Assembly: GCF_001677475.2 (NCBI RefSeq)
Contig: NZ_CP015229.1
Reading direction: 5' to 3' (one strand)
Length of the DNA stretch: 64,000 bases
Source: Escherichia coli
GTDB taxonomy: Bacteria > Pseudomonadota > Gammaproteobacteria > Enterobacterales > Enterobacteriaceae
Position 1 is the first letter of the stretch. Every line of letters starts with the position of its first letter. Shown one piece after another: positions 1,379 to 55,066 of this stretch. The position numbers and the translations under genes are program-made. The notes beneath the pieces were generated by a model. It worked only from the letters and a program-made list of their open reading frames with translations. It searched no databases and was not told the DNA's origin.

Positions 1379-1525
1379 GGTCATTCTCCTTTACGGTGAT
1401 AACCGTCGCGTAAGCAAAAAATTGCCCCATTTTTTTGGATTCCTCAGCGACAACAACTGTCGATTTTTAGTAAATATCTATCCGGTACGAAGCCCGGCCT
1501 CTTGGTATGAATGATTGGTTTGAAG

Positions 1526-1562
1526 CAAAAAATAACCGACGCTGATGAAACGTCGGTTTTTA
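1526..1562 (-). terminator. Rho-independent terminator hairpin (accgacg...cgtcggt) flanked by A and T runs, downstream of yeeY
   Basis: Inverted repeat with flanking A6/T5 runs read directly from sequence. Confidence 0.5.
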
Positions 1563-1644
1563 GTCATTTTTTGACAGCGGCGCATTGTGCCTAAATAGGG
1601 GGGAAATGACAAGAGAATGAGAGGCTTGTCATAATAATTTTTCT

Positions 1645-3526: not shown

Positions 3527-3781
3527 TCAATAATGATAACGACATGCTGCAATGAGCAGTGAATCGTCGGTAACCGCGTATACCAGACGGTGCTCCTCTG
3601 TAATGCGTCGGGACCAGAAACCTGACAAATTATGTTTCAGGGGTTCTGGCTTCCCCTTACCTTCAAATGGCGTTCTGCGGGTATCTTTGATAAGTTCATT
3701 GATCTTTTTAACAATTCGCTTATCTGTTTCCTGCCAGTACAGATAATCATCCCATGATTCCTCAGACCAGATTAGTTTCAC
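3527..3781 (-). CDS. yoeB: YoeB toxin (RelE/ParE superfamily mRNA interferase)
   Basis: 84-aa [25 protein letters not shown]... ending ...CRYHY; overlaps yefM stop by 4 nt. Confidence 0.9.
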
Positions 3782-4029
3782 TCAATAATGTCCTTTTCCG
3801 TTCCTTTGCCAGATTTCAGGCTATCGATTGAGTCCATCAATCTCCGGGCATTAGCGGGGGAACGCAGTAGATAAGCCGTCTCCTCCAGGGAGTTGTATTC
3901 TTCGAGTGACATCAGAACACAAGCCTCTCCATTCTGACGAGTAATAAGGATCGGGGCATGATCTTCAACGGCTTTCATCATTGTTGCCGACAAATTCTGA
4001 CGCGCTTCGCTGTAGCTAATTGTACGCAT
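3778..4029 (-). CDS. yefM: YefM antitoxin (Phd/YefM family); start taken at internal Met [13 protein letters not shown]
   Basis: ORF translation matches remembered 83-aa YefM; ORF-track N-terminal extension is probably not translated. Confidence 0.85.
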
Positions 4030-4044
4030 GTTAATCTCCTCTTT

Positions 4045-4062
4045 TGTACATTTCATTGTACA
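4045..4062. promoter_or_regulatory. Putative YefM-YoeB operator: two TGTACA core motifs 12 bp apart just upstream of yefM
   Basis: ttgTGTACAtttcatTGTACAat read in sequence; the TGTACA core of the yefM operator is established knowledge. Confidence 0.5.
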
Positions 4063-4312
4063 ATGATGGGCGTTAATTAACTATTTATTAATTAGTTTGT
4101 AGATCAAGATATTGTCAGTGAGTCGAAAAATACAGGCTTCGCTATTTTTGGTGCCGTCAGCTTAGAGGTCAGTCCTCTTAGCACCCTCCTTGCCCCGCTC
4201 ATTCATTAAACAAATCCATCGCCATAAAATATATAAAAAAGCCCTTGCTTTCTAACGTGAAAGTGGTTTAGGTTAAAAGACATCAGTTGAATAAACATTC
4301 ACAGAGACTTTT

Positions 4313-4363
4313 ATGACACGCGTTCAATTTAAACACCACCATCATCACCATCATCCTGACTAG
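4313..4363 (+). CDS. hisL: his operon leader peptide HisL (MTRVQFKHHHHHHHPD, 7 consecutive His codons)
   Basis: 16-codon ORF with His7 run read directly; too short for ORF track. Confidence 0.95.
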   Translation: MTRVQFKHHHHHHHPD

Positions 4364-4423
4364 TCTTTCAGGCGATGTGTGCTGGAAGACATTCAGATCT
4401 TCCAGTGGTGCATGAACGCATGA

Positions 4424-4460
4424 GAAAGCCCCCGGAAGATCATCTTCCGGGGGCTTTTTT
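4424..4460 (+). terminator. his attenuator terminator (gcccccggaag...cttccgggggc followed by T6)
   Basis: Perfect GC-rich hairpin plus T-run between hisL and hisG. Confidence 0.9.
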
Positions 4461-4508
4461 ATTGCGCGATTGATAACGGTTCAGACAGGTTTAAAGAGGA
4501 ATAACAAA

Positions 4509-5408
4509 ATGACAGACAACACTCGTTTACGCATAGCTATGCAGAAATCCGGCCGTTTAAGTGATGACTCACGCGAATTGCTGGCGCGCTGTGGCATTAA
4601 AATCAATCTTCACACCCAGCGCCTGATCGCGATGGCAGAAAACATGCCGATTGATATTCTGCGTGTGCGTGACGACGACATTCCCGGTCTGGTAATGGAT
4701 GGCGTAGTAGACCTTGGGATTATCGGCGAAAACGTGCTGGAAGAAGAGCTGCTTAACCGCCGCGCCCAGGGTGAAGATCCGCGCTACTTTACCCTGCGTC
4801 GACTGGATTTCGGCGGCTGCCGCCTTTCGCTGGCAACGCCGGTTGATGAAGCCTGGGACGGCCCGCTCTCCTTAAACGGTAAACGTATTGCCACCTCTTA
4901 TCCTCACCTGCTCAAGCGTTATCTCGACCAGAAAGGCATCTCTTTTAAATCCTGCTTGCTGAACGGTTCTGTTGAAGTCGCCCCGCGCGCCGGACTGGCG
5001 GATGCAATTTGCGATCTGGTTTCCACCGGTGCCACGCTGGAAGCTAACGGCCTGCGCGAAGTCGAAGTTATCTACCGCTCGAAAGCCTGCCTGATCCAGC
5101 GCGATGGCGAAATGGAAGAATCCAAACAGCAGCTGATCGACAAACTGCTGACCCGTATTCAGGGTGTGATCCAAGCGCGCGAATCAAAATACATCATGAT
5201 GCACGCACCGACCGAACGTCTGGATGAAGTCATCGCCCTGCTGCCAGGTGCCGAACGCCCAACTATTCTACCGCTGGCGGGTGATCAACAGCGCGTAGCG
5301 ATGCACATGGTCAGTAGCGAAACCCTGTTCTGGGAAACGATGGAAAAACTGAAAGCGCTGGGTGCCAGTTCAATTCTGGTCCTGCCGATTGAGAAGATGA
5401 TGGAGTGA
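4509..5408 (+). CDS. hisG: ATP phosphoribosyltransferase HisG (start at [12 protein letters not shown])
   Basis: ORF translation matches HisG; operon context. Confidence 0.95.
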
Positions 5409-5413
5409 TCGCC

Positions 5414-7796
<2,383 letters not shown>

Positions 7797-7797
<1 letters not shown>

Positions 7798-15787: not shown

Positions 15788-17212
15788 TCAAGAAATTAAA
15801 GATATAATACTCCCAAGCACATTCGTAACATATTGCTTAGCCTGATTTTCATCACTGCCTTCAGCGTAACAACGGAGTTCAGGGGCATTTCCGGAAGGAC
15901 GGAGATGTATAATATCACCATTAGTTAAAATAAATCTTGCACCATCAGTTTCATCAATAGTGGAACAGGATAATGATTCATACCCTAATTTATTAAAGAA
16001 ATTATTAGGTGATGAAATGGCATTTTTTATAATTTGCTGACTTGACTCTGAAGGAAAGTTTTTCACTCTATCTGACCAAGTAAATCGCTGTGGAAGATTA
16101 TTAACCAGTTGAGAGATAGTACTATTGCGAGAAGCTATTAAGAGCATTAACGCTGGTAATACTGCATCTCGAGTAGGTAACGCATTTAATTCTTTGCCAT
16201 TAATTTGTAAATCGGAGGCAAGCAGAAAACCGCCATTAGCTTCAAAACCAGCGACTGAATCAAATTGTTTAGCAAGTTCTGAAAACGCTGCAATCACATA
16301 AGGAGAGCCAATTTTAGTCCGTTGTGTATTTGCAAATTTATTAGATTGTTCAATTGCTGTATTACAACTCACTGGAATAGCCAACGCCTTGATATTAAGT
16401 TCAATAGCCGTAAGTAATCCCAGAATATCGCCTCGTAGCCATTCACCATTTTCATCGGCAACTAAAGGGCGATCACCATCACCATCTGTTGAGAAAATTG
16501 CATCGAGATTGTATTTTTTAGACCACTCTCTTGCAAGTAGACGATCTTCTTCGCTAACTGCTTCCGTATCAATAGGAACGAACTCATCACTTCTACCGAG
16601 GGAGATGACCTCAGCACCCAATTGATTAAAAAGTGGAGCATATAAATCTCGTCCTGCACTAGAATGTTCATAGATCCCAATTCTCTTCCCCTTTAAAATA
16701 TCGGAATTAAAAAGAGAAACATAACGTTCTAGGTATGAATCCGCACCTTGAGTACTTGTTTCAAGATGAGGTAATACATCTACAGGAGAAAAAACATATT
16801 CACTATTTACTATTGCTAACTCATCCTCTTTTGTGATTTCACCATCTGGACGGTAAAATTTCAAACCATTACGGTCAAAAGGTATGTGACTACCGGTAAC
16901 CATTATGCAGGGGATGTTTTTCTGCATGGAATAATGAGCTAATGCAGGGGTCGGAATTACACCATGATATTCAACAGCGAACCCATGTTGTTTGATAGCG
17001 AACGCGCATGCCTGAGCAATTTCATAACTACTCGGGCGATTGTCAATGGCTAAAGCAACTTTATTAAAATTGTATTTGTCATCAATAACAGAAAGAAACG
17101 CATGACTGAAGGCTGCACAAACATCATGGGTAAAATCGATGACTAAACCACGAGCACCACTAGTGCCGAAAGCAATATTGCTATCGGTAATGATTTTGTT
17201 AGCATTTAACAT
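15788..17212 (-). CDS. O-antigen cluster phosphohexomutase (phosphomannomutase-like, divergent; TGSHIP and DGDGDR motifs)
   Basis: alpha-D-phosphohexomutase-like motifs in ORF translation; position downstream of manC; sequence clearly different from cps CpsG in this window. Confidence 0.65.
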   Translation of the reverse strand: MLNANKIITDSNIAFGTSGARGLVIDFTHDVCAAFSHAFLSVIDDKYNFNKVALAIDNRPSSYEIAQACAFAIKQHGFAVEYHGVIPTPALAHYSMQKNIPCIMVTGSHIPFDRNGLKFYRPDGEITKEDELAIVNSEYVFSPVDVLPHLETSTQGADSYLERYVSLFNSDILKGKRIGIYEHSSAGRDLYAPLFNQLGAEVISLGRSDEFVPIDTEAVSEEDRLLAREWSKKYNLDAIFSTDGDGDRPLVADENGEWLRGDILGLLTAIELNIKALAIPVSCNTAIEQSNKFANTQRTKIGSPYVIAAFSELAKQFDSVAGFEANGGFLLASDLQINGKELNALPTRDAVLPALMLLIASRNSTISQLVNNLPQRFTWSDRVKNFPSESSQQIIKNAISSPNNFFNKLGYESLSCSTIDETDGARFILTNGDIIHLRPSGNAPELRCYAEGSDENQAKQYVTNVLGSIISLIS

Positions 17213-17217
17213 GATGA

Positions 17218-17964
17218 TTACTTCTTAATAAATTGAGGAAGTTTGGATAGATTTTTATACGCTAAAGCTATTGGCCAGATAATACCATTCTGTTTCATAG
17301 CGCGAATATCTTCCATTGATTTATTGATCATGGAAGATGCTGAGCGATTGCTAATTCCACCAACACGCATTTTCACTAATACTTTTGGTAAGTAAGCTAT
17401 TGAAATACGCTGTTTTAAAATATAACGTAATAATGAGTCATAATCAGCAGATATTCGGTAATCTAATGAAAAACAACCAAACTCACTATAACAATCGCGT
17501 TTCATATAAAATGATGGGTGTGGCGGCATCCAACCTAGTTTCATCTTCAAACGGCTAAATGAGCCACTCTTCCATAATCTAATACGTTTAGTCGTATCAT
17601 TTTGGGCAACATACTCCAAATCACCATAAACAGCATCACACCCTGAACTTTCAAATGTTTTTACTATATCTGCAATAGCATCGTCATAAGCAAGTAAGTC
17701 ATCAGAGTGCAAAAATCCAATTATATCACCAGAAGCTGCTTGAATACCTTTATTCAGTGCATCATAAATACCATTGTCGGGTTCGCAAATGATTGTTGAA
17801 ACTCTTGTACATTTACTCTTGATTAGCTCTATTGTATTATCTTTCGATGCTCCATCTACAACTATATATTCAATATCTGAATGCGTTTGTTTTTCCAGAG
17901 AGAGTAATGTATCAAGAAGCGTTTTTTCACTATTATAAGTTGCTGTGATAATTGAAATCCGCAT
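17218..17964 (-). CDS. Glycosyltransferase family 2 (WcaE-like)
   Basis: N-terminal ISIITATYNSEKTL...VVDGASKDNT motif typical of GT2; O-antigen cluster context. Confidence 0.75.
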   Translation of the reverse strand: MRISIITATYNSEKTLLDTLLSLEKQTHSDIEYIVVDGASKDNTIELIKSKCTRVSTIICEPDNGIYDALNKGIQAASGDIIGFLHSDDLLAYDDAIADIVKTFESSGCDAVYGDLEYVAQNDTTKRIRLWKSGSFSRLKMKLGWMPPHPSFYMKRDCYSEFGCFSLDYRISADYDSLLRYILKQRISIAYLPKVLVKMRVGGISNRSASSMINKSMEDIRAMKQNGIIWPIALAYKNLSKLPQFIKK

Positions 17965-19370
17965 TAGTATCCAACTCCAGAAGAAGAAACTCTTATAACA
18001 TCATCCTCTTCCAAGTAGACTCCTGATCTAACCTCAATTATTTCAAGTGGGATCTTGCCAGGATTTTCAATGGCATGTGGAACACCAACAGGTATATATG
18101 TTGATTCATTTTCTGAAACAAGATAAGTTTTCTCCTCAAGATGAACTTTAGCTGTCCCCGAAACAACAATCCAATGTTCAGTACGATGGTAATGGATCTG
18201 CTTAGCGGTAATGTGACCCGGTAATACAATCACATGTTTAACCTGAAAGCGTTGCCCTTCAGCTATAGTGTCATGACTGCCCCAAGGACGAAAAATTTCC
18301 CGATGTTGTAAATATTCTGTTCGATTATTCTTTTTAAGCTGAGCTACGATGTTTTTAACTTGCTGAACTTTATCTTTATGAGCAACTAATACTGCATCTT
18401 TCGTTTCAACGACAACCAAATCCTTTACGCCCACGGCACCAATAAGTCTATGCTGCGAATAAAGATAACTATCTGTAGCATCCTCAACCAAAACATCACC
18501 ACGAATGGCATTGCCGCTTTGGTCTTTTGAACTTATTTCCCACAGCGCAGACCATGACCCAACATCACTCCATTGCGCATCCAATGGTACGACTACAGCT
18601 TCTGCTGTTTTTTCCATAACGGCATAGTCGATTGACTCTTCAGGGCAGCAAGAAAAAGAAGAATTATCCAAGCGGATAAAATCTAAATCTTGAGTCGAGG
18701 AAGCTAAGGATTGCTGACAACTCTCTAGAATATCTGGACGGAATTTTTTTAGTTCATCGATGAATACAGATGCTCTGAACATAAACATTCCACTATTCCA
18801 AAGATAACCGCCATCTGACAAATACCGCTGAGCTAATTCTAGCTCTGGCTTTTCAACAAAAGCTGCAACTTTATAACCTTGCCCACTAAGTGGATCACCT
18901 GACTTAATATAGCCATACCCTGTCTCTGGAGCTGTTGGAACAATGCCAAATGTGACCAACTTACCTTGCTGCGCAAACTCCTTCGCGGCCAAAACTGCTG
19001 TAATGAAACTATTCTCATCCTGAATTTCATGGTCAGCCGCAAGAACTAAAAGTATAGGATCCTCTCCACTTGCCGTTGCCTGAAGCGCTGCAAGGGCTAC
19101 AGCTGGTGCCGTATTGCGCCCAACAGGCTCAAGCAAAATCCCACTATGCTTTAAACCAACTTTACGTAATTGTTCAGCAACGATGAAACGATGTGATTCA
19201 TTACAAATGATCAAAGCAGGATTGTGTTCAACCTTTTCTAGCCGTCGCATAGTCTCTTGCAACATAGTTAAGCGGCTATTTAAAGACAGAAATTGTTTCG
19301 GATAAAGTGTACGTGAAAGAGGCCATAATCTGGTACCAGATCCACCGGCCATGACAACGGGAAGTAGCAT
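17964..19370 (-). CDS. manC: Mannose-1-phosphate guanylyltransferase / mannose-6-phosphate isomerase (ManC), O-antigen copy
   Basis: ORF translation closely parallels cps CpsB in this window ([19 protein letters not shown]... C-terminal cupin); AT-rich codon usage. Confidence 0.9.
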   Translation of the reverse strand: MLLPVVMAGGSGTRLWPLSRTLYPKQFLSLNSRLTMLQETMRRLEKVEHNPALIICNESHRFIVAEQLRKVGLKHSGILLEPVGRNTAPAVALAALQATASGEDPILLVLAADHEIQDENSFITAVLAAKEFAQQGKLVTFGIVPTAPETGYGYIKSGDPLSGQGYKVAAFVEKPELELAQRYLSDGGYLWNSGMFMFRASVFIDELKKFRPDILESCQQSLASSTQDLDFIRLDNSSFSCCPEESIDYAVMEKTAEAVVVPLDAQWSDVGSWSALWEISSKDQSGNAIRGDVLVEDATDSYLYSQHRLIGAVGVKDLVVVETKDAVLVAHKDKVQQVKNIVAQLKKNNRTEYLQHREIFRPWGSHDTIAEGQRFQVKHVIVLPGHITAKQIHYHRTEHWIVVSGTAKVHLEEKTYLVSENESTYIPVGVPHAIENPGKIPLEIIEVRSGVYLEEDDVIRVSSSGVGY

Positions 19371-19375
19371 ATCTA

Positions 19376-19837
19376 TTACCTTGATATAAAATAATTTTTG
19401 GTATATTGATGAACTGTAGTGCTATTAAGCAACGTTACTACATCAAACCACTTGTAGGAATTATGCTGAATCGTTGGTAGGCGAAGTTGCTGCGGATTAA
19501 TTTGAATTTCATATCCATGCACTACGTAGTGTGTAGAAAAATCTAGTTCAGAAAAATTGTCATTGTAAAAGTGTTCATACACACCAAGAAATATGGCCTC
19601 ACCAAGACTAGTTTGAACGCCTAACTCTTCATATGTGATCCTTTTAAAAGCATCCTCGAATGACTCGTCCTTAAAAATTCGCCCTCCAGGCACAAACCAA
19701 TAATTTTTTGCGGGGCGATTCAGGCGCTGCCCAAGCAGCGCCTCTCCTTTATCATTTCTAATTATGAGGTCAATCGAGATTAGAGGAGTATGCTTGACTA
19801 TTGTTTTAAATAACTCATATTCTAATCTCTTTTTCAT
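19376..19837 (-). CDS. gmm: GDP-mannose mannosyl hydrolase (NUDIX), O-antigen copy
   Basis: NUDIX-type protein parallel to cps Gmm/WcaH in this window (YWFVPGGR motif). Confidence 0.85.
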   Translation of the reverse strand: MKKRLEYELFKTIVKHTPLISIDLIIRNDKGEALLGQRLNRPAKNYWFVPGGRIFKDESFEDAFKRITYEELGVQTSLGEAIFLGVYEHFYNDNFSELDFSTHYVVHGYEIQINPQQLRLPTIQHNSYKWFDVVTLLNSTTVHQYTKNYFISR

Positions 19838-19839
19838 AA

Positions 19840-20805
19840 CTATCCCCGAAAAGAATCAATATTCTCAAGAAACCATTGATATGTTAATGATAGACCTTCA
19901 TGTAAATTATAGCGATGTAGCCAGCCCAAGTTTTTGAGTCGGGTAACGTCCATAAGCTTTCGCGGGGTGCCATCTGGTTTGGTCGCGTCAAAAACAATTT
20001 TTCCTTGATAACCCACTACAGAAGCCATTGTTTCAGCCATTTCACGTATAGAACAATCCACCCCCGTACCAACATTAATATGAGATAACATTGGTTGTGT
20101 ATTTTGTTGATAGATTGTGTCCTCTAACTCCATCACATGAACCGAGGCAGCAGCCATATCATCAACATATAAAAACTCACGCATCGGTGTTCCCGTGCCC
20201 CAGACAATAACTTCTTGTGCACCACTTTCTTTTGCCTCATGGAATCTACGCATAAGCGCCGGAATAACATGGGAGTTTTCAGGATGGAAGTTATCATTCG
20301 AACCATAAAGATTAGTCGGCATTACACTTCTATAATCGCGACCATATTGACGATTATAAGACTCACATAATTTTATGCCCGCAATCTTAGCAATTGCGTA
20401 TGGCTCATTAGTTGGCTCAAGTATGCCCGTCAAAAGTGCAGACTCTTTCATCGGCTGCTCTGCAAATTTTGGATAAATGCAGCTAGAGCCTAAAAAAAGT
20501 AATTTTTGAATTCCAACCTTGTGAGCTGAATGTATAATATTACTCTCAATCATGAGATTCTGATAAATGAATTCTGCTGGAAATGTATTATTGGCATAAA
20601 TACCACCTACTTTTGCCGCAGCAAGATAAACCTGATCAACCCTCTCTCTCTCAAAAAATGCCTCAACATCCTTCTGCACGGTCAGATCGAGTTCTTTGTG
20701 TGTTTTAACCACTAACTCGATATCATCACGCAGCGATAATTGTCGGCAAATAGCAGAGCCAACCATGCCCTGGTGCCCAGCAACATATACTCTTTTCTTT
20801 ATCAT
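19840..20805 (-). CDS. fcl: GDP-L-fucose synthase (GDP-4-keto-6-deoxymannose 3,5-epimerase/4-reductase), O-antigen copy
   Basis: 321 aa, colinear with cps Fcl in this window ([12 protein letters not shown]...). Confidence 0.9.
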
Positions 20806-20808
20806 GTA

Positions 20809-21942
20809 TTAACGCTCCAGAGAAACCGAAACATCATAACCATGGCTTTTAAGAAGTGCATGTTGTTTCGCTTTTAACAAATCGCTAGCAACCATTTCTG
20901 CACACATCTCTTCAACTGTAATCTCTGGTTCCCAGCCTAATAGATTTTTTGCTTTTGCAGGGTCACCTAAGAGTGTTTCAACTTCAGCAGGACGGAAATA
21001 ACGAGGATCAACCCGAACTATAACGTCTCCAACATTTACACCAATAGCACAATCGGAAACTTTATTAACTACTGTGGCTATCTCATCTACACCCTCACCA
21101 GTGAATTCAAGTTCAAGTCCGACTTCTTTAGCAGCCATACGGACAAATTCACGCACAGATATCTGTTTACCTGTGGCGATGACAAAATCCTCTGGATGAT
21201 CTTGCTGAAGCATCATCCATTGCATGCGAACATAATCTTTAGCGTGTCCCCAGTCACGCAACGAATCCAGATTACCCAAATATAAGCATTGTTCGATCCC
21301 CTGAGAAATATTAGCTATTGCACGAGTAATTTTACGAGTAACAAAAGTTTCTCCACGGCGTGGCGATTCATGGTTAAAAAGAATACCATTACAAGCATAT
21401 ATACCATAAGATTCACGGTAGTTAACTGTTATCCAGTAAGCATACATCTTAGCTACAGCATAAGGCGAACGCGGGTAGAATGGAGTTGTTTCACGCTGAG
21501 GAATCTCTTGCACTAAACCAAAAAGTTCTGAAGTAGATGCTTGATAGAAACGTGTTTTTTTCTCCAGCCCACAGATTCGTATTGCTTCTAATAAACGTAA
21601 TGTACCTATTGCATCTACATCTGCTGTATATTCTGGTGACTCGAATGATACTGCGACATGGGATTGTGCACCAAGGTTATAAATTTCATCCGGTTGAATT
21701 TCTTGGATTAAACGGATCAGATTCGATGTATCTGTTAAATCCCCATAGTGTAAAATAAAATTAGGCTCATCAACGAATCGTGATTGATATATATGATCAA
21801 TTCTATCAGTGTTAAATGACGATGCTCGGCGTTTTATACCATGTACTTCATAACCTTTTTCAATAAGAAATTCAGCAAGATATGAACCATCTTGTCCAGT
21901 TACGCCTGTGATAAATGCAACTTTTTTATTCATTTTAATCAT
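20809..21942 (-). CDS. gmd: GDP-mannose 4,6-dehydratase, O-antigen copy (start may be at MNKK, 21930)
   Basis: Colinear with cps Gmd in this window ([37 protein letters not shown]). Confidence 0.9.
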
Positions 21943-21951
21943 GTTATGTTC

Positions 21952-22983
21952 CTAAATATTCAACTCATTATAAACTTTAATCGTTTCATTAACACATTTT
22001 GACCATGAAAATTTTTGCGCCTGCAGTAAACCTCTTTCGATCATAACATTTCTTTTTAAATTAACTAATTCTAAAGCTTCTTTTAACGTAAACTCATTAA
22101 TATCATCAATATAAATAGGCGCATTCCCCCCTACTTCCGGCAACGAGGATGTGTTTGCACAAATAACTGGACATCCGGCCTGCATAGCTTCTAGGACAGG
22201 TATTCCAAACCCCTCATAACTGGAAGGGTAAACAAGTGCATATGCAGTATTATACTGTATATTTAAATCTTCATTACTCAAAAATGTAAAATGTTCATAT
22301 CTATTTTTTAAATATTTTTCAAGGAGTTCTCTTTCATATTTTTTAAGCGAGCCTCCGCCTACAATTGTAAGCTTTAAGCCATGTAATTTCCCTACAGCTT
22401 TGACTGCAAGAACGAAATTTTTATAACCTTCTCTGGCACCGACAAACAAAACTGAATTATTTACTCTCATATCAGATATGTTAGAAATATGTTTATATGA
22501 TGGGGATACACCATTATAAATCACTCTAATTTTATCTTCACTAATTGGACAGTACTTAAGTAAATCTCTAGCAGTGTTGTTTGAAATACAAATTACGATA
22601 TCACTATTCTTGATAGCATGATATTTTTGAAGAGAATGAATAAATTTTGACATTCCTCCCCTGTATTTTTCATAGGTAAAATCATGAACAGTTGTAACAT
22701 TTTTCACATTCAAATTAGGATTTTTATGAACTCGATAATAACTTGAGTGTAAAACCCTAGTTTTAATATCACTTACATTTCTATATCTTTCTAAAATTCT
22801 TGGCTCACGATATTGCAACTTTAAGTCACTTGTATCAAACTCAAATTCTTTATTTTTATACAATAGAATTTCAGCTTGGTAATTTGATTTCACCATTCCT
22901 TGGATCAACTCATTAAAGTATACACTTATTCCACCAAATGATTGGAGATTATAAATAATCCCATCGATAGTTACCATTATCAT
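21952..22983 (-). CDS. Glycosyltransferase family 1 (GT4-like)
   Basis: C-terminal EGFGIPVLEAMQAGCPVI motif typical of GT-B retaining glycosyltransferases. Confidence 0.75.
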   Translation of the reverse strand: MIMVTIDGIIYNLQSFGGISVYFNELIQGMVKSNYQAEILLYKNKEFEFDTSDLKLQYREPRILERYRNVSDIKTRVLHSSYYRVHKNPNLNVKNVTTVHDFTYEKYRGGMSKFIHSLQKYHAIKNSDIVICISNNTARDLLKYCPISEDKIRVIYNGVSPSYKHISNISDMRVNNSVLFVGAREGYKNFVLAVKAVGKLHGLKLTIVGGGSLKKYERELLEKYLKNRYEHFTFLSNEDLNIQYNTAYALVYPSSYEGFGIPVLEAMQAGCPVICANTSSLPEVGGNAPIYIDDINEFTLKEALELVNLKRNVMIERGLLQAQKFSWSKCVNETIKVYNELNI

Positions 22984-24236
22984 CGCCCTCGCAAGGTAAT
23001 ACGTTCGATTAGAACGAACAATATCAAAAAGAAGATCAGTAACAATACATATGCAGGCCCAGAAAAATAAGTTCCAAATGAAGGTGAAATGAGAATTATA
23101 GAAAGCAAAAAATAGGATGCAGAGTTCGTAATTACTTTTGCATTAAACATTTTAAGCTTAGCAAAAATATAGCCATAAAAGATATTCATAGGTGAAAGAA
23201 AAGTTAAAATGACCAGTCCAACATATCCATAATCAACAAAATTATCCATCCCTTTTGAAAAAGCAGGTGTATGCCCCGACTCTGCAGCTCCTGGATAATA
23301 GATTTCATTTACATGCAGAAATCCATATACAAAAGGTTTATCAGGAAACAAACCTCTCGGTATATAAGACCAAAACTGGCTGAAATAGACTGTGCCATTG
23401 AAAAATTTAACCACACCTTTATCAATATCTTGCAGCAAATAAATACTGTTTTGATACTGGTCAAAATAAGACAATACTACATCGACATTCATATTTCCAA
23501 TAGCTAAAAATAAATTATAGAGAATGGCACACGCTGCCAGAGGTGTAACTAAAATCAGGCCAAATTTTAGAAATCTAGATTTATTAAGACTTAACACTGC
23601 AAGATAAAAAATCGCAAATGAAAGAATAAAGGTTTTCGATCCAAGAAAAAAAACCAAGGTACAATAGAATATCGCGCATAAAAATAATTTTATTTCCGAG
23701 CGTAAAGCCAACGCTCTAGAAAAATAAGATACTGAAAGCATACTTAAAGAAAAGGCATACAAAAAACCATTACCTTCTCGATAGTTTTGATAACCATCCC
23801 TGGGATTCGTCAACCATCCAGAAATACCTATTTCTGACTTTGAAGAAAGAAGAACAAATAATGTAACAAACAGAACCAATGTAATATTTGATATTCTTTT
23901 TAATTTTGTATGCGAAATTAAGCAAGTTAAATAGCTCTCTCTATTTTTGAATATTATATTAAAAATAAAATAAAATAAAATTATAGATAAAACACCCACA
24001 AAAGAGTATATGTTATATATGAATAAAGCCTCATTATAATATTGATTTAACGCAAAGTCTGAACCATAGAAAAGAGGGGCCAGAATATTTTCCAATAGAA
24101 AAACCGGGAATAAAATAATGGCGCAAATGGTAAAGGGATTGATAATTGTAAGTCTTAGCGTTTTCGTCGCTAATAAAGAAAAAGAAAAATATAGTACTAC
24201 AGCGAGTGTAACATTTAAACAATATATTATTACCAC
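22980..24236 (-). CDS. wzy: O-antigen polymerase Wzy (candidate)
   Basis: 418-aa highly hydrophobic multi-TM protein with no catalytic motifs of other families, very AT-rich, located in O-antigen cluster. Confidence 0.6.
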   Translation of the reverse strand: MVIIYCLNVTLAVVLYFSFSLLATKTLRLTIINPFTICAIILFPVFLLENILAPLFYGSDFALNQYYNEALFIYNIYSFVGVLSIILFYFIFNIIFKNRESYLTCLISHTKLKRISNITLVLFVTLFVLLSSKSEIGISGWLTNPRDGYQNYREGNGFLYAFSLSMLSVSYFSRALALRSEIKLFLCAIFYCTLVFFLGSKTFILSFAIFYLAVLSLNKSRFLKFGLILVTPLAACAILYNLFLAIGNMNVDVVLSYFDQYQNSIYLLQDIDKGVVKFFNGTVYFSQFWSYIPRGLFPDKPFVYGFLHVNEIYYPGAAESGHTPAFSKGMDNFVDYGYVGLVILTFLSPMNIFYGYIFAKLKMFNAKVITNSASYFLLSIILISPSFGTYFSGPAYVLLLIFFLILFVLIERITLRGR

Positions 24237-24246
24237 ATCCTCTCCC

Positions 24247-25056
24247 CTATCTTAAACCGAATAATTTGCGCTTAATTGATTTTGTTTTTTGATATAATGT
24301 TTGAGGAACAATCATTTTAAATAAAACTTGCAATGTATTATAGACAGCAAATTTTATTTTGTATGATAAGGGCATATGAATATTATTTTTAGCTAGAATG
24401 TAAGCAATTTCTTTCTTGACTAATTTTTTATTAGACTCATTTGAACTTACACCCGAAGCATCCATTATGGATACAGGAAAATTCACATAATGCAACGTAG
24501 ATGGATCTATTGTTCTTATCATAAAATCACTATCAGCAGCAATTTTTAGTGTTGTATCAAAGCGATTAGCATTATCTTTAAAAAAGCTAGAATGCTGGAA
24601 AGTACCCTGATGAGGAGGAAGTGAAGGCCGACCACATTCCCACTTTTTCTGTATTTTTCCGTAAACTCCAACTATATTATCTTTATCACTAAAATATACA
24701 TCACCATATATAGTTGTTGCACTCATATTTTCGTGAATGGCATTTGCTATTTTTGAAAGAGTATTATTTTCATAGAATGTATCGCCAGCTCCCATAAAAA
24801 TAACCCAATCGCCATTTATGTGAGGAAGAGCTTTATTCCAAGCGTCGTATATTCCTTGATCAGATTCGCATAAAAAATAATCTATAATATCAATATATCT
24901 ATAAATATATTCTAGTGTTGATTTGTTAGAGTTGCCGTCTATAACAATCCATTGAATATTACAATAATTTTGATTTTTAATAGATTCTGCAGTCTTGCAG
25001 AAATCTTCCTCACAATTATACGTCGATGTTATTATAGTAATCTGTAAGCCATTCAT
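24247..25056 (-). CDS. Glycosyltransferase family 2
   Basis: ITIITSTYNCEEDF...VIDGNSNKST N-terminal GT2 signature. Confidence 0.75.
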   Translation of the reverse strand: MNGLQITIITSTYNCEEDFCKTAESIKNQNYCNIQWIVIDGNSNKSTLEYIYRYIDIIDYFLCESDQGIYDAWNKALPHINGDWVIFMGAGDTFYENNTLSKIANAIHENMSATTIYGDVYFSDKDNIVGVYGKIQKKWECGRPSLPPHQGTFQHSSFFKDNANRFDTTLKIAADSDFMIRTIDPSTLHYVNFPVSIMDASGVSSNESNKKLVKKEIAYILAKNNIHMPLSYKIKFAVYNTLQVLFKMIVPQTLYQKTKSIKRKLFGLR

Positions 25057-25062
25057 CTTAAC

Positions 25063-25773
25063 TCACTTATTTTTCATAGCAATATATTTTAATCTTAATT
25101 CTTTAATTAATGTCTTTACTTTACTATCAGTGGAATACTCAATATTAAACGTGCCAGAGACTCCTCTTATTTTGGGAATAGTTGTTCCAATAACTCCTTT
25201 TAATTTATTATTTTTAATTTGCTCAAAAAAAATGTGTTCTAAATAAACACCATCAAGGTCACGCACAGATTTATAAGAATTAGCAAAAAAGTCCCAATAT
25301 ATTTTTTTATTTACAACATAAAATCTTGTATCAATCATATTTTCATTCAGAAAAGGAACTGGTATAAAAAAAGCTTTACCATTGAATGCATTTATACATT
25401 GCTTATAATTATCGACGTATAGTTTTGATGTTATTTTTGCAAAACTTTCAGCATTAGACAAATAGCGGCTATTCATTAATGCATACTCAATTATTTCACC
25501 CTCTCCGTAACCTTTACCATAAGATTGAACACTTTCTATATCATTTTTGAAATGTATTATCTCGATCGAATCTTTATTAAGTATTTGTTTATCATTATGA
25601 ATATCTTTCGTCAAATCATAATCACTACCATCACATATTACTATAGAATCAGCATTCTTTGACAACTCTCTTATCGCTTTCAATGTATGTAATAATCTTG
25701 AATTTTCATCAGAAAGATTTGTAAGAGGAGCATTAGGTGAGATACAAGAAGTCACTAATACTGGGATTTTCAT
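25063..25773 (-). CDS. Hypothetical O-antigen cluster protein, ~236 aa (possible glycosyltransferase of unassigned family); start ATG overlaps wzx stop (ATGA)
   Basis: ORF with ATGA coupling to wzx; contains DGSDYD (DxD-like) motif; no family recognised by eye. Confidence 0.4.
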   Translation of the reverse strand: MKIPVLVTSCISPNAPLTNLSDENSRLLHTLKAIRELSKNADSIVICDGSDYDLTKDIHNDKQILNKDSIEIIHFKNDIESVQSYGKGYGEGEIIEYALMNSRYLSNAESFAKITSKLYVDNYKQCINAFNGKAFFIPVPFLNENMIDTRFYVVNKKIYWDFFANSYKSVRDLDGVYLEHIFFEQIKNNKLKGVIGTTIPKIRGVSGTFNIEYSTDSKVKTLIKELRLKYIAMKNK

Positions 25774-27014
25774 TTTTTCTTTTCCAGCCTCAACGAAATT
25801 AACATTAGTATAAAATAATCGACGGTGACTCTTGCGCTCCAAGCATAAGCCACACCTGCTACAGAAAAATACATAATTGAAAAATATAAAACCAGCAGAT
25901 ATGGAATACATTCAACAAGATGAATGAGCCCCGTAATATTTGCATAACCTTTCGATTGGATTTGAGCAAATGGAACTTGAGCAAGAGAGTTGAATACAAA
26001 ACCTACTAATAATATTTGAAATATATAAGGACTCTCAGTGCTATATTGTTTTCCAAGCCATAAAGTTATAATATCACCAGCCTTCAAAGAAAACATAATA
26101 GCTATAACTATACTAGTTACACTTATTAATAACGTAGCCTCTTTTATTATTTTTCTCCGCTCATCTTTTGTATTATTCTTGCATAGAGCAGGAAAAACTG
26201 TCCTTGCTATAGTTGTCGGTAATATAAGTAACTTTGAAATTGCATCTGCAGGAGCAATATATAACGAAGCTTTAGCGGGGCCAACTGCATTTGATAAGAT
26301 AAATCGATCAATATTTGTAAGCAATGGGTTAATTATACTACTAATACTCGCCCATCCTCCAAAACTTAATAGTGCTTTTGTTTTACTTAGACTAAAATCC
26401 ATTGTAAGCCTATTATTTCTAAAAACAAAGAACACGCTTAAAAGAGCACCAACTATTCTCGCAATCACCAATCCCAAAGTAGCATTAAGCAAACCAACAT
26501 TTCCATGAATGAAAATAACTGGTAGTAGCGCAGTTAACACACCTGTAATTGTTTTTTGTACATTCAATAATTTGAACTTTTCATATCCTTCTAATATCCC
26601 CCAACAAACCATATTAAGAAGATAAAATGGCAGACAGTAGGATAAAATACTTATAGCATATGCAACACTTTCAGTTTGTTCCGGACCACTAATTAAGGAT
26701 GCAATCTTATGGTCGCAGTAATAAAAAATTACGGCTACAACAACACCAATAGATAATGTTAATAAAAATGATGTTGTAATTATTTGACTGGTTGCCTTTT
26801 TGTCGTTTTTATTTAATGATATTTCACGCACAACGGCTCGGGAAAGTCCGAGATCAAATATACTTGCGTATCCAACTATTGTAAAAAACATTAAAAAAAA
26901 GCCAAAGTTAGTTATTCCTAACTCCCTTGCCAAATACCCCATCGCAGGTATTGACAATAAAGTTGGGATTGCATACCCAACCAAATTTATTAAACTATTT
27001 ATTTTAATACTCAT
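25770..27014 (-). CDS. wzx: O-antigen flippase Wzx (polysaccharide transporter family)
   Basis: 414-aa protein with ~12 predicted TM segments, located immediately after rmlC. Confidence 0.7.
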   Translation of the reverse strand: MSIKINSLINLVGYAIPTLLSIPAMGYLARELGITNFGFFLMFFTIVGYASIFDLGLSRAVVREISLNKNDKKATSQIITTSFLLTLSIGVVVAVIFYYCDHKIASLISGPEQTESVAYAISILSYCLPFYLLNMVCWGILEGYEKFKLLNVQKTITGVLTALLPVIFIHGNVGLLNATLGLVIARIVGALLSVFFVFRNNRLTMDFSLSKTKALLSFGGWASISSIINPLLTNIDRFILSNAVGPAKASLYIAPADAISKLLILPTTIARTVFPALCKNNTKDERRKIIKEATLLISVTSIVIAIMFSLKAGDIITLWLGKQYSTESPYIFQILLVGFVFNSLAQVPFAQIQSKGYANITGLIHLVECIPYLLVLYFSIMYFSVAGVAYAWSARVTVDYFILMLISLRLEKKK

Positions 27015-27031
27015 TTTTTAATTATCTTTTG

Positions 27032-27574
27032 TCAATAATTATTTTGTATAAATGGAGTGCCCAAACAATCTTTTTGTGATAAAAGAGGTTCTTTGTATAA
27101 TTGCCAATCTATGTTAAGTAAAGCATCATTCCAAATGATACATTTCTCATGTTCTTTTGAGTAAAAATTATTGGTCTTATACAATATTTCTGAACCTTCT
27201 TCTTTTACATAAAAACCATGTGCAAATCCCTCAGGGATCCACAACTGGCGCTTATTCTCAGCAGATAAATTCACCCCAACCCACTTGCCAAAAGTAGGTG
27301 ACGATTTACGAATATCAACCGCAACATCAAAAACCTCACCAACAACGCAACGTACCAATTTCCCTTGCGCATAAGGTTCTAACTGATAATGCAGCCCGCG
27401 TAAAACACCTTTACTAGACTTCGAATGGTTATCCTGGACAAATTCAACCTTACGTCCTACAGCTTCTTCGAATACTTTCTGATTAAAGCTTTCCATAAAG
27501 AAACCACGCTCATCACCAAAAACTTTCGGCTCGAAAATTAACACATCAGGAATTTCTGTTTTAATTACGTTCAT
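27032..27574 (-). CDS. rmlC: dTDP-4-dehydrorhamnose 3,5-epimerase RmlC
   Basis: 180-aa cupin; rmlBDAC order. Confidence 0.9.
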   Translation of the reverse strand: MNVIKTEIPDVLIFEPKVFGDERGFFMESFNQKVFEEAVGRKVEFVQDNHSKSSKGVLRGLHYQLEPYAQGKLVRCVVGEVFDVAVDIRKSSPTFGKWVGVNLSAENKRQLWIPEGFAHGFYVKEEGSEILYKTNNFYSKEHEKCIIWNDALLNIDWQLYKEPLLSQKDCLGTPFIQNNY

Positions 27575-27578
27575 TTTA

Positions 27579-28457
27579 TTAATAACCTTTAATCATTTTC
27601 AGCAGATACTGTCCATAAGCATTTTTTTTCAGCGGCTCCGCTAATGCTTTCACCTGTTCAGCATCAATAAACCCTTTACGGTAAGCAATTTCTTCTGGGC
27701 AGGAAACCTTTAGTCCCTGGCGCTCTTCAATGGTGGCAATGAAGTTGCTTGCTTCAATAAGACTCTGATGTGTCCCCGTATCCAGCCATGCATAACCACG
27801 CCCCATCATGGCAACGGATAAACGCCCCTGTTCCATATAAATACGGTTAATATCGGTAATTTCCAGTTCACCACGGGCAGAAGGCTTAAGGTTTTTCGCC
27901 ATTTCGACAACGTCGTTATCATAGAAATAAAGCCCGGTTACCGCATAATTACTTTTTGGTTGTAGCGGTTTTTCTTCCAGGCAGATCGCCGTACCGTTTT
28001 TATCAAACTCAACGACACCGTAGCGTTCAGGATCATTAACGTGATAGGCAAATACCGTTGCACCACTTTCTTTGTTAACAGCGACATCCATTAACTTCGG
28101 CAGATCATGACCGTAGAAGATATTATCACCAAGAACCAAAGCACAATCATCACCACCGATAAACTCTTCACCGATAATAAACGCCTGCGCAAGCCCATCT
28201 GGAGTCGGTTGCACTTTGTACTGAAGATTTAGCCCCCACTGGCTACCGTCACCCAGCAGTTGTTGAAAACGAGGAGTATCCTGTGGCGTACTAATAATCA
28301 GAATATCGCGAATACCCGCCAACATCAGTGTAGAGAGCGGGTAATAGATCATCGGCTTATCATAAATAGGTAATAGCTGTTTACTGACAGCCATAGTCAC
28401 AGGATAAAGACGTGTACCAGAACCACCCGCTAAAATAATACCTTTACGCGTTTTCAT
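27579..28457 (-). CDS. rmlA: Glucose-1-phosphate thymidylyltransferase RmlA
   Basis: [19 protein letters not shown] nucleotidyltransferase N-terminus; 292 aa. Confidence 0.95.
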
Positions 28458-28514
28458 TTCATCATTCCTTTTAATTCATCTTGCTCCACCATCACGAACA
28501 AGATGCAAAAACTA

Positions 28515-29414
28515 TTAAATTGCTGTAGTCGTAAATAATTCGTTGAGCATTCGTTTCACACCAACCTGCCACTCAGGCAAGACAAGCGCAAAGTTCTGCT
28601 GAAATTTTTCTGTATTAAGGCGAGAGTTATGTGGACGACGAGCTGGTGTAGGATAGGCTGTTGTTGGTACTGCGTTGAGCTTGTTGAGTGCAAGGGGAAT
28701 ACCTGCTTTGCGCGCCTCTTCAAAAACCAGCGCAGCATAATCGTGCCAGGTTGTGGTACCACTGGCTACCAGATGGTACAAACCTGCGACTTCCGGTTTA
28801 TTCAGTGCCACACGAATAACATGTGCCGTACAATCAGCCAGCAGCTCAGCACCTGTTGGCGCACCAAATTGATCATTTATCACAGCCAGTTCTTCGCGCT
28901 CTTTTGCCAGACGCAACATCGTTTTGGCGAAGTTATTTCCTTTACCTGCGTATACCCAGCTGGTACGGAAAATAAGATGCTTCGCGCAATGTTCCTGTAA
29001 CGCTTTTTCTCCGGCTAACTTGGTTTCACCGTAAACATTTAGCGGTGCGGTTGCATCCGTCTCCAGCCATGGCGTGTCGCCATTTCCAGGGAAGACGTAG
29101 TCAGTTGAGTAATGAATTACCCAAGCCCCAACTTCATTAGCCGCTTTTGCAATTGATTCAACGCTAGTCGCATTGAGTAATTGTGCAAATTCGGGTTCTG
29201 ACTCAGCCTTATCTACTGCGGTGTGAGCCGCAGCATTAACAATAACATCAGGTCGAATTCTTTTGACTGTTTCAGCTACACCTTCAGGATTACTAAAATC
29301 ACCACAATAATCAGTGGAGTGAACATCAAGAGCAATCAAATTACCCAAAGGTGCCAGAGCACGCTGTAGTTCCCAACCTACCTGCCCTGTTTTGCCGAAA
29401 AGGAGGATATTCAT
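28515..29414 (-). CDS. rmlD: dTDP-4-dehydrorhamnose reductase RmlD
   Basis: [20 protein letters not shown]; 299 aa. Confidence 0.95.
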   Translation of the reverse strand: MNILLFGKTGQVGWELQRALAPLGNLIALDVHSTDYCGDFSNPEGVAETVKRIRPDVIVNAAAHTAVDKAESEPEFAQLLNATSVESIAKAANEVGAWVIHYSTDYVFPGNGDTPWLETDATAPLNVYGETKLAGEKALQEHCAKHLIFRTSWVYAGKGNNFAKTMLRLAKEREELAVINDQFGAPTGAELLADCTAHVIRVALNKPEVAGLYHLVASGTTTWHDYAALVFEEARKAGIPLALNKLNAVPTTAYPTPARRPHNSRLNTEKFQQNFALVLPEWQVGVKRMLNELFTTTAI

Positions 29415-30499
29415 TACTGGCGGCCCTCATAGTTCTGTGCAATCCACGATTGATAGGCACCACTTTTCACATTATCAACCCATTTTGTATTGGACAGGTA
29501 CCATTCCACTGTCTTCCGAATCCCGCTCTCAAACGTTTCCTGCGGTTTCCAGCCCAATTCGCGGCTAATCTTCTCAGCATCAATCGCATAACGGCGATCG
29601 TGTCCCGGGCGGTCGGCAACATAAGTAATTTGCTCACGATAAGATTTCTCTTTCGGTACAATCTCATCCAGCAAATCACAAATAGTAAGCACTACATCGA
29701 TGTTTTTCTTTTCGTTGTGTCCGCCAATATTATAGGTTTCGCCTGCTTTACCTTCAGTAACGACTGTATATAACGCTCGAGCATGATCCTCGACATACAA
29801 CCAATCGCGAATTTGATCCCCTTTACCATAAATAGGTAATGCTTTACCTTCCAGAGCATTCAGAATAACCAATGGAATCAATTTTTCCGGGAAATGATAA
29901 GGGCCATAATTGTTAGAGCAATTAGTCACAATGGTCGGTAAACCATAGGTACGTTTCCACGCGCGGACTAAATGATCGCTGGATGCTTTGGATGCGGAAT
30001 AAGGGCTGCTTGGTGCGTAAGCTGTTGTCTCAGTAAATAAGGGTAATTTTTCTTTATTATTTACTTCGTCAGGATGAGGCAAATCACCATAGACTTCGTC
30101 AGTAGAAATATGATGAAAACGGAAGCTATTTTTCTTGTCGCTATCAAGAGCAGACCAGTAATTGCGAGCGGCTTCCAAAAGGACATAAGTACCAACAATA
30201 TTGGTTTCAATAAATGCCGCAGGGCCTGTAATTGAACGATCCACATGGCTTTCAGCAGCCAGGTGCATCACTGCATCCGGCTGATGCAGAGCAAAAATCC
30301 GCGCCATTGCAGCAGCATCGCAAATATCCGCATGTTCAAAAACATAGCGTTCAGAATCAGAAACATCAGCAAGTGATTCCAGGTTTCCGGCGTACGTTAA
30401 TTTATCGACATTAACAACACTATCCTGCGTATTATTTATAATGTGACGAACTACAGCAGAACCAATAAATCCTGCGCCACCAGTAACAAGTATTTTCAC
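29414..30499 (-). CDS. rmlB: dTDP-glucose 4,6-dehydratase RmlB
   Basis: [20 protein letters not shown]; 361 aa SDR. Confidence 0.95.
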
Positions 30500-30573: not shown

Positions 30574-30612
30574 CACGCTACCGCCCCTGGCTTTACAGCT
30601 ACCAGAGCACTG
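30574..30612 (-). promoter_or_regulatory. JUMPstart element containing ops (GGCGGTAGCGTG) upstream of the O-antigen operon
   Basis: Minus-strand read: cagtgctctggtagctgtaaagccaggggcggtagcgtg, matching the remembered 39-bp JUMPstart consensus. Confidence 0.9.
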
Positions 30613-35902: not shown

Positions 35903-36090
35903 GCCTGATGCGACGCTGGCGCGTCTTATCAGGCCTACAAGACCCGAGCACAGAACCGTAGGCCGGATAAGGCGTTCACGCCGCATCCGGCATTCAGTGC
36001 CTGATGCGACGCTGACGCGTCTTATCAGGCCTACAGGTCCCGAGCACAGAACCGTAGGACGGATAAGGCGTTTTACGCCGCATCCGGCAA
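35903..36090. repeat. BIME/REP cluster: two tandem ~90-bp units (gcctgatgcgacgctg[gc/ac]gcgtcttatcaggcctaca...ccgtagg.cggataaggcg...ccgcatccggca)
   Basis: Two near-identical palindromic units read directly; ORF-track ORFs here are spurious. Confidence 0.9.
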
Positions 36091-40497: not shown

Positions 40498-40587
40498 GTC
40501 GTTACCCTTTTTCAGGCAATAGTTGGCCCTGACCGAAGCGGCCAATTTTGTTTTTGTCGTTATTTACATCGCGGTTCGGCATTCATT

Positions 40588-55028: not shown

Positions 55029-55066
55029 CACGCTACCGCCCCTGGCTTTTAGCTACCAATACACTG
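55029..55066 (-). promoter_or_regulatory. JUMPstart/ops element in the long 5' leader of the colanic acid operon
   Basis: Minus-strand read: cagtgtattggtagctaaaagccaggggcggtagcgtg (ops GGCGGTAGCGTG). Confidence 0.85.

Follow-up and report, generated by a model that had tools for sequence, protein, structure and literature searches.

Our analysis identifies, with near certainty, the control region of the Escherichia coli his operon, consisting of the leader peptide gene hisL and a ribosome-mediated transcription attenuator, within a 64,000-nt stretch of DNA (hereafter the window) that is the yeeZ-yefM/yoeB-his-O36 antigen-colanic acid region of the E. coli chromosome. The identification is carried by the anatomy of the sequence, by its membership of an RNA family and by mutually exclusive helices that are conserved in other genera, and none of our results contradicts it. 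Since the late 1970s the his attenuator has served as a paradigm of ribosome-mediated transcription attenuation, and the leader and attenuator described here are already known, annotated in both RefSeq and Rfam, and represent no new biology.

The leader gene and its run of histidine codons were read from the sequence and its translation:

4313-4363, plus strand: hisL leader peptide gene, ATG at 4313 and TAG at 4361-4363, 16 codons, MTRVQFKHHHHHHHPD (sequence reading and translation).
4334-4354, plus strand: run of seven His codons, CACCACCATCATCACCATCAT, the presumed sensor of charged tRNA-His supply (translation).

Seven consecutive CAY codons occur only once within the 64 kb, both strands considered, and that occurrence is the run at 4334-4354. 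Base composition predicts about 6e-6 such runs per window, and 100 dinucleotide-preserving shuffles of the window yielded none. K-12 hisL (b2018) and the hisL that RefSeq lists for strain A1 (WP_001364200.1) both encode this very peptide. The gene was missing from the ORF listing, which had a floor of 20 aa and gave only spurious overlapping ORFs around it (4283-4354, minus strand; 4375-4473, plus strand); with 16 codons, hisL lies below the cut-off and so goes unseen by length-filtered ORF tracks. The earlier note had described a 16-codon hisL with seven consecutive His codons that fell below the ORF-track cut-off, as small ORFs can, and sequence, translation and listing bear this out. The span it had claimed, 4313-4460, also proved exact, beginning at the start codon and ending at the final T of a six-T run.

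Family membership and genomic context agree with this assignment. The Rfam family His_leader (RF00514) matched the plus strand at 4339-4462 with 132.6 bits (gathering score 49, E = 2.8e-23), covering model positions 1-126 of 126. When 4200-4520 was used as a megablast query, the region was found in 5,423 of 5,426 complete E. coli genomes, 5,416 of which matched over 80% or more of the query, and records among the matches listed carry the RefSeq features "hisL: his operon leader peptide", "His leader region" and hisG. Strain A1, K-12 MG1655 and strain E06 have hisL and the leader feature annotated at homologous coordinates, and in all three the gene order comprises yeeZ and yoeB-yefM 5' of hisL on the opposite strand and hisGDCBH 3' of it. 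The window likewise carries hisG, hisD, hisC, hisB and hisH on the plus strand 3' of the attenuator, beginning with:

4509-5408, plus strand: hisG, first structural gene under the attenuator, annotated ATG at 4509, Shine-Dalgarno sequence AGAGGA at 4494-4499.

Several observations concern the annotation of these flanking genes. A "first start after stop" rule over-extends hisG, placing its start at TTG 4470 rather than the annotated ATG 4509 and bringing the false extension to within 10 nt of the attenuator T run; the same rule over-extends hisD (5405-6718), with GTG 5405 taken in place of the annotated ATG 5414. The divergent type II toxin-antitoxin pair yoeB-yefM (3527-4029, minus strand) lies 5' of hisL as in K-12, and the ORF list starts yefM at 4056 (92 aa) where the annotated start is at 4029 (83 aa). 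An A run in the yefM-hisL intergenic region (4126-4132) has one A more than in K-12 and E06; this non-coding site falls 5' of the yefM-yoeB operon.

Downstream of hisL, Rfam, folding and an inverted-repeat search all point to one hairpin:

4423-4439 / 4443-4459, plus strand: E:F intrinsic terminator, the attenuator, with a GC core at 4428-4435 / 4447-4454.

The core reads GCCCCCGG/CCGGGGGC, and the hairpin sits in a near-perfect inverted repeat whose arms (4420-4440 / 4442-4462) are 90% complementary. The core stem (4423-4439 / 4443-4459) has a computed energy of -29.6 kcal/mol and is joined by a six-T run (4455-4460, then ATT) that lies 48 nt 5' of the hisG start at 4509. The 188-nt leader 4283-4470 as a whole folds far better than expected, with a minimum free energy (MFE) of -71.1 kcal/mol compared with -42.1 +/- 3.9 kcal/mol for shuffled sequences (z = -7.5), and none of 200 shuffles folded as well. 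The symmetry of the hairpin also produced two kinds of match that we rejected: a His_leader match on the minus strand (4420-4567, 34.5 bits vs the gathering score of 49), which is an artefact of that symmetry and marks no second element, and sub-threshold matches to sRNA and miRNA families (RcsR1, Spot 42 and NsiR1 among the sRNA ones), which reflect the palindromic terminator hairpin alone.

The terminator competes with other pairings of the same RNA. We computed helix energies in isolation with ViennaRNA and mimicked the ribosome by masking leader bases; the following helices, all on the plus strand, are predicted:

4346-4359 / 4368-4381, plus strand: A:B helix, -12.2 kcal/mol, also in the Rfam consensus structure.
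4363-4373 / 4379-4390, plus strand: B:C helix, first half of the read-through conformation, -12.1 kcal/mol.
4381-4389 / 4398-4406, longest form 4375-4389 / 4398-4413, plus strand: C:D helix, -11.9 to -14.7 kcal/mol.
4396-4409 / 4428-4441, plus strand: D:E helix, the antiterminator that holds the terminator 5' arm, -16.7 kcal/mol, 85% complementary.
4417-4439 / 4443-4466, plus strand: extended form of the E:F helix, -37.5 kcal/mol.

Segments B, C, D and E each take part in two competing helices, with D:E overlapping E:F and B:C overlapping both A:B and C:D. The earlier note had seen a strong GC hairpin and T run after hisL, had called them the classical his attenuator and had proposed a search for alternative antiterminator and terminator pairings. 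Folding and the inverted repeat at 4420-4440 / 4442-4462 upheld the first point, the Rfam score of 132.6 bits (gathering score 49) and the RefSeq annotation the second, and the ViennaRNA search recovered the classical alternatives, B:C plus D:E against C:D plus E:F.

When the complete leader was folded at equilibrium with a masked ribosome footprint, the terminator was kept under every mask, as a kinetic switch would lead one to expect. Since equilibrium folding cannot display the read-through state, we turned to truncated co-transcriptional snapshots. Snapshots without a ribosome formed A:B and C:D, followed by E:F. With a mask up to 4346-4358, and with D yet to be made, the MFE structure was B:C; with a mask up to 4346-4364 and the RNA 3' end at 4443, it was B:C plus D:E (-24 to -29 kcal/mol). 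E:F was present in every snapshot of the full-length RNA. The modeling thus supports the read-through state only as a kinetic, co-transcriptional intermediate. With a mask up to 4373, which represents a ribosome at the stop codon, B was covered and C:D formed first (-13.9 kcal/mol), and once the 3' end reached 4443, D:E (-20.3 kcal/mol) was slightly favored over C:D (about -14 kcal/mol). Once the ribosome has reached the stop codon, termination would therefore depend on the earlier formation of C:D, which is an assumption of the classical model.

The same architecture recurs well beyond E. coli. An exact-pattern scan of species-representative genomes for six His codons followed by Pro-Asp-stop gave at least 120 matching loci, in Enterobacterales, Aeromonas and Pasteurella, and every listed one was a short ORF ending in H6-10 P D*. 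The number of His codons among the 120 loci listed was six in 95, seven in 24 and ten in one. A HisG homologue (68-99.7% identity) lay 3' of the leader, co-oriented with it, in all 111 listed loci with enough downstream DNA (in the nine listed loci lacking a hisG match, the downstream sequence extends no further than 204 nt), and the distance from leader stop to hisG in those 111 was 121-293 nt, with a median of 145 nt that equals the spacing in the window.

We aligned the 107 distinct leaders among the matches listed and compared each helix with slid controls in which pairing partners were shifted by 1-3 columns. Across these leaders, the terminated set of helices (A:B, C:D and E:F; 34 pairs) was paired in 97.4% of cells compared with 42-58% in the slid controls, and the read-through set (B:C and D:E; 21 pairs) in 96.6% compared with 43-56%, contrasts that are inflated because the window sequence itself supplied the helices tested. 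Paired cells by helix amounted to 95.7% for A:B, 98.7% for C:D, 98.3% for E:F, 98.8% for B:C and about 95% for D:E (107 leaders listed). The loci had been chosen by the 3' end of the peptide, a choice that leaves the downstream helices unconstrained. Double changes were found at five pairs of the terminated set in the 107 leaders, including compensatory changes in the terminator from GC to AU in 23 sequences and from CG to UA in 32; many stem columns vary little, and true covariation is concentrated in the terminator. In leaders where C4431 (segment E) is U, its E:F partner is A and its D:E partner is still G, giving U-A and G-U pairs that keep both structures.

Upstream of hisL, a promoter can be placed 3' of an A+T-rich stretch:

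4245-4250 and 4269-4274, plus strand: probable hisL promoter, -35 TTGCTT and -10 TAGGTT separated by an 18-nt spacer (hexamers read from the sequence, placement deduced).

The his promoter probably lies at 4245-4274, a position derived from the deduced +1 and, in part, from what is generally described for the his promoter; a literature search returned no citable his promoter hexamers. The +1 itself comes from published numbering. The leader RNA has been described as 180 nt long, with DnaA-box-like sites at +46-56, +126-134 and +187-195 (PMC10989985). Sites with at most two mismatches occur at 4327-4337, 4407-4415 and 4468-4476 (the last in the K-12 allele), and the published numbering fits these positions only if +1 is 4282, from which we deduce:

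4282, plus strand: +1 of the ~180-nt his leader RNA (deduced from the published numbering of DnaA-box-like sites).

With +1 at 4282, a 180-nt RNA would end near 4461, directly past the T run, and the pause site would fall at +102. The pause elements are as follows:

4355-4359 / 4368-4372, plus strand: his pause hairpin CCUGACUAGUCUUUCAGG, 5-bp stem CCUGA/UCAGG with an 8-nt loop, the inner part of A:B.
4374-4384, plus strand: his pause site, RNA 3' end U4383, 11 nt past the pause hairpin (sequence reading).

We take U4383 to be the exact his pause nucleotide, in line with the his pause literature. The pause consensus is present (G-10 at 4374, Y-1 at 4383 and G+1 at 4384), and each of these three positions is at least 90% conserved across the 107 leaders among the matches listed. 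The function of the pause hairpin, the G-10 Y-1 G+1 consensus and the coupling of RNA polymerase to the leader ribosome have been described previously, and pausing is known through assays published for this very sequence (PMC9291695).

Two simple scans of 4000-4700 failed to recover these elements. A sigma-70 scan left the his promoter uncalled, since its -35 hexamer matches at only three of six positions. An intrinsic-terminator scan passed over the his attenuator and reported a weak 5-bp hairpin within hisG (4633-4649); A-U and G-U pairs carry the attenuator stem into the T run, so that a rule placing the T tail after the stem fails. These misses are a limit of the scans and not evidence that the promoter or the attenuator is absent.

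For ribosome dependence, the pause and actual termination, we infer from the literature on an all but identical sequence that the region would operate as follows. Transcription would start ~30 nt 5' of hisL, at the deduced +1 (4282), and RNA polymerase would pause at U4383 behind the hairpin 4355-4359 / 4368-4372 until the ribosome on hisL catches up. When charged tRNA-His is scarce, the ribosome would stall on the His codons at 4334-4354 and cover segment A, B:C (4363-4373 / 4379-4390) and D:E (4396-4409 / 4428-4441) would form, the terminator 5' arm would be occupied, and polymerase would read through into hisGDCBHAFI. When charged tRNA-His is plentiful, a ribosome at the TAG (4361-4363) would cover B, allowing C:D and E:F (4423-4459) to form; E:F would stop transcription at the U run (4455-4460) and leave a leader RNA of ~180 nt. 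If hisL were not translated at all, the helices formed would be A:B, C:D and E:F, and termination would likewise follow. This matches the accepted attenuation model, in which the attenuator is a 14-bp stem with a 5-nt loop (PMC10989985), and in E. coli and Salmonella read-through rises as charged tRNA-His becomes limiting, with translation of the leader a requirement (PMC10989985; PMC9291695).

A "DnaA-dependent riboswitch" was proposed for this leader in 2023 (PMC10989985). Under that proposal, attenuation would require DnaA bound to DnaA-box-like sites on the leader RNA, where it would block the leader ribosome and favor E:F over D:E; we consider it unlikely that the attenuator works in this way. 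Its proponents reported DnaA-dependent attenuation of hisG, and not of hisL, together with immunoprecipitation of the leader RNA (PMC10989985), and the sites that they call important are intact in the window (4327-4337 and 4407-4415), with two mismatches each to TTWTNCACA. Binding of DnaA to the leader was however seen in vivo and not in vitro, and the authors themselves call their model "possible" (PMC10989985). Sites with two mismatches to a degenerate 9-mer are also common by chance: we counted six within 220 nt, several of them outside the proposed DnaA boxes. The fourth proposed box, "DnaA box 4" of PMC10989985 (4468-4476), goes from two mismatches to three in the window through the A at 4469, and the classical model accounts for the conserved alternative helices with no need of a protein. 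A role for DnaA would be an extra layer and would not replace the identity of the region as the hisL attenuator.

The A at 4469 (G in K-12) lies 9 nt past the U run and outside the terminated transcript. A second difference, T4443 (C in K-12), is a polymorphism of the terminator loop that changes the 5-nt loop from AUCAC to AUCAU and may add an A-U pair; the computed energies for T4443 and the K-12 C are -37.5 and -36.8 kcal/mol, a difference of 0.7. The allele first appeared very rare, with three exact matches to an 80-nt query, and this was ruled out by a 65-nt query without 4469, which found T4443 in 457 of the 5,217 genomes matched, the E. coli type strain and strain C among them; the apparent rarity was due to the linked A4469 in the 80-nt query. 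T4443 is also the commoner state in other genera (in the alignment of 107 leaders among the matches listed), and, judged from the folding, it is predicted to be a neutral loop polymorphism. Just 3 of 5,426 complete genomes (AST215, NY1601 and KV7) combine T4443 with A4469. That the combination (a loop that could close to three nucleotides through an added A-U pair, together with A4469) might shift the basal set-point of his attenuation in the O36 lineage and bear on the DnaA model strikes us as highly improbable.

Returning to the hisL attenuator, we consider it a very long shot that the terminated ~180-nt leader would also work as a trans-acting small RNA. There are other sRNAs that derive from attenuators, and under histidine sufficiency the leader would be an abundant, stably folded and terminator-ended transcript. 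Against this, no target is indicated by any of our results, the matches to sRNA families all fall far below their gathering scores, and the cis-acting helices fully explain the pattern of conservation. Weakest of all, with virtually no probability, is the view that a chance short ORF adjoins an ordinary or bidirectional terminator of neighboring genes with no regulatory coupling: hisL-sized ORFs are abundant by chance and the hairpin is near-palindromic, with a weak sub-threshold Rfam match on the reverse strand (34.5 bits), but no gene ends converge here (yefM-yoeB, on the minus strand, is transcribed away, and hisG, on the plus strand, lies downstream), seven CAY codons in a row are expected only about 6e-6 times per window, the ORF, His run, Pro-Asp-stop and helices are conserved 5' of hisG in 111 listed loci, and the His_leader score of 132.6 bits argues against it, so that conservation, synteny and the Rfam score together exclude it.

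Other features of the window were noted in passing. In hisC (6715-7797, plus strand), a (CTGG)7 repeat at 7299-7328 (reported by TRF as (GCTG)7.5) takes the place of the (CTGG)4 found in K-12 and in the closest O36 strain, E06. The 12-bp expansion is in frame and duplicates Leu-Ala-Gly-Trp, giving a HisC of 360 aa rather than 356 aa. Repeats of CTGG are classic hotspots of slippage, and gain or loss of a single unit would shift the hisC reading frame; the laboratory strain OV2 matched over only 82 nt, which may represent the loss of one unit. Among 2,903 complete E. coli genomes matched over the full length, none had the (CTGG)7 form. The exact 360-aa protein nonetheless exists in public records (for example ANO89798.1, on 14 contigs), which rules out a unique or artificial expansion, and the allele is a rare natural one.

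Further along the window, an O36-type O-antigen cluster (about 15788-30499, minus strand) carries O36-family wzx and wzy and rmlBDAC, and holds a second gmd-fcl-gmm-manC-manB set, the other belonging to the colanic acid cluster at about 40-46 kb. The interval 17000-27000 was covered in only 8 of 5,426 complete genomes, the best match being E06 (99.6%), whose O-antigen cluster has an IS5-like insertion that the window lacks. Above their Rfam thresholds were JUMPstart elements 5' of the O-antigen and colanic acid clusters (30574-30612 and 55029-55066, both minus strand), an algC RNA motif just 5' of the colanic acid manB/cpsG (40502-40551, minus strand), the REP-type naRNA4 (35961-36031, plus strand) and STnc240 (1525-1599, minus strand). 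No tRNA genes were found in the 64-kb window.

As a positive control, the his leader demonstrates that a 16-codon regulatory ORF is recognizable from raw sequence. Our data also emphasize that length-filtered ORF tracks hide leader peptides and that a naive scan for a hairpin and T run can miss a canonical terminator.

Compared with known systems, the window is closest to K-12, whose hisL and his attenuator have the same peptide, pause hairpin, pause site, A-F segments and U run, at the same distance to hisG and between the same yefM-yoeB and hisG flanks; over 4239-4530, which takes in the promoter region, hisL, the attenuator and the beginning of hisG, the two sequences differ at only two bases, T4443 and A4469. 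The his leaders of Salmonella and other Enterobacterales share the architecture, keeping the five helices, the His6-7-Pro-Asp-stop ending and a hisG ~145 nt past the stop. Most other genera have six His codons (95 of the 120 loci listed) compared with seven in the window, and their leaders are variable in the residues at the N terminus, in the C:D loop, in the spacer between D and E, and in the terminator loop. The trp, thr, leu, phe and ilv attenuators follow the same logic, with a leader ORF rich in cognate codons, a pause hairpin and mutually exclusive helices, and they require no regulatory protein (PMC10989985; PMC9291695). They differ from the his leader in sensing other amino acids and in belonging to other RNA families (Thr_leader reached 22.8 bits on the window vs a gathering score of 55), and the his leader forms three stacked hairpins where trp follows a 1:2 / 2:3 / 3:4 scheme.
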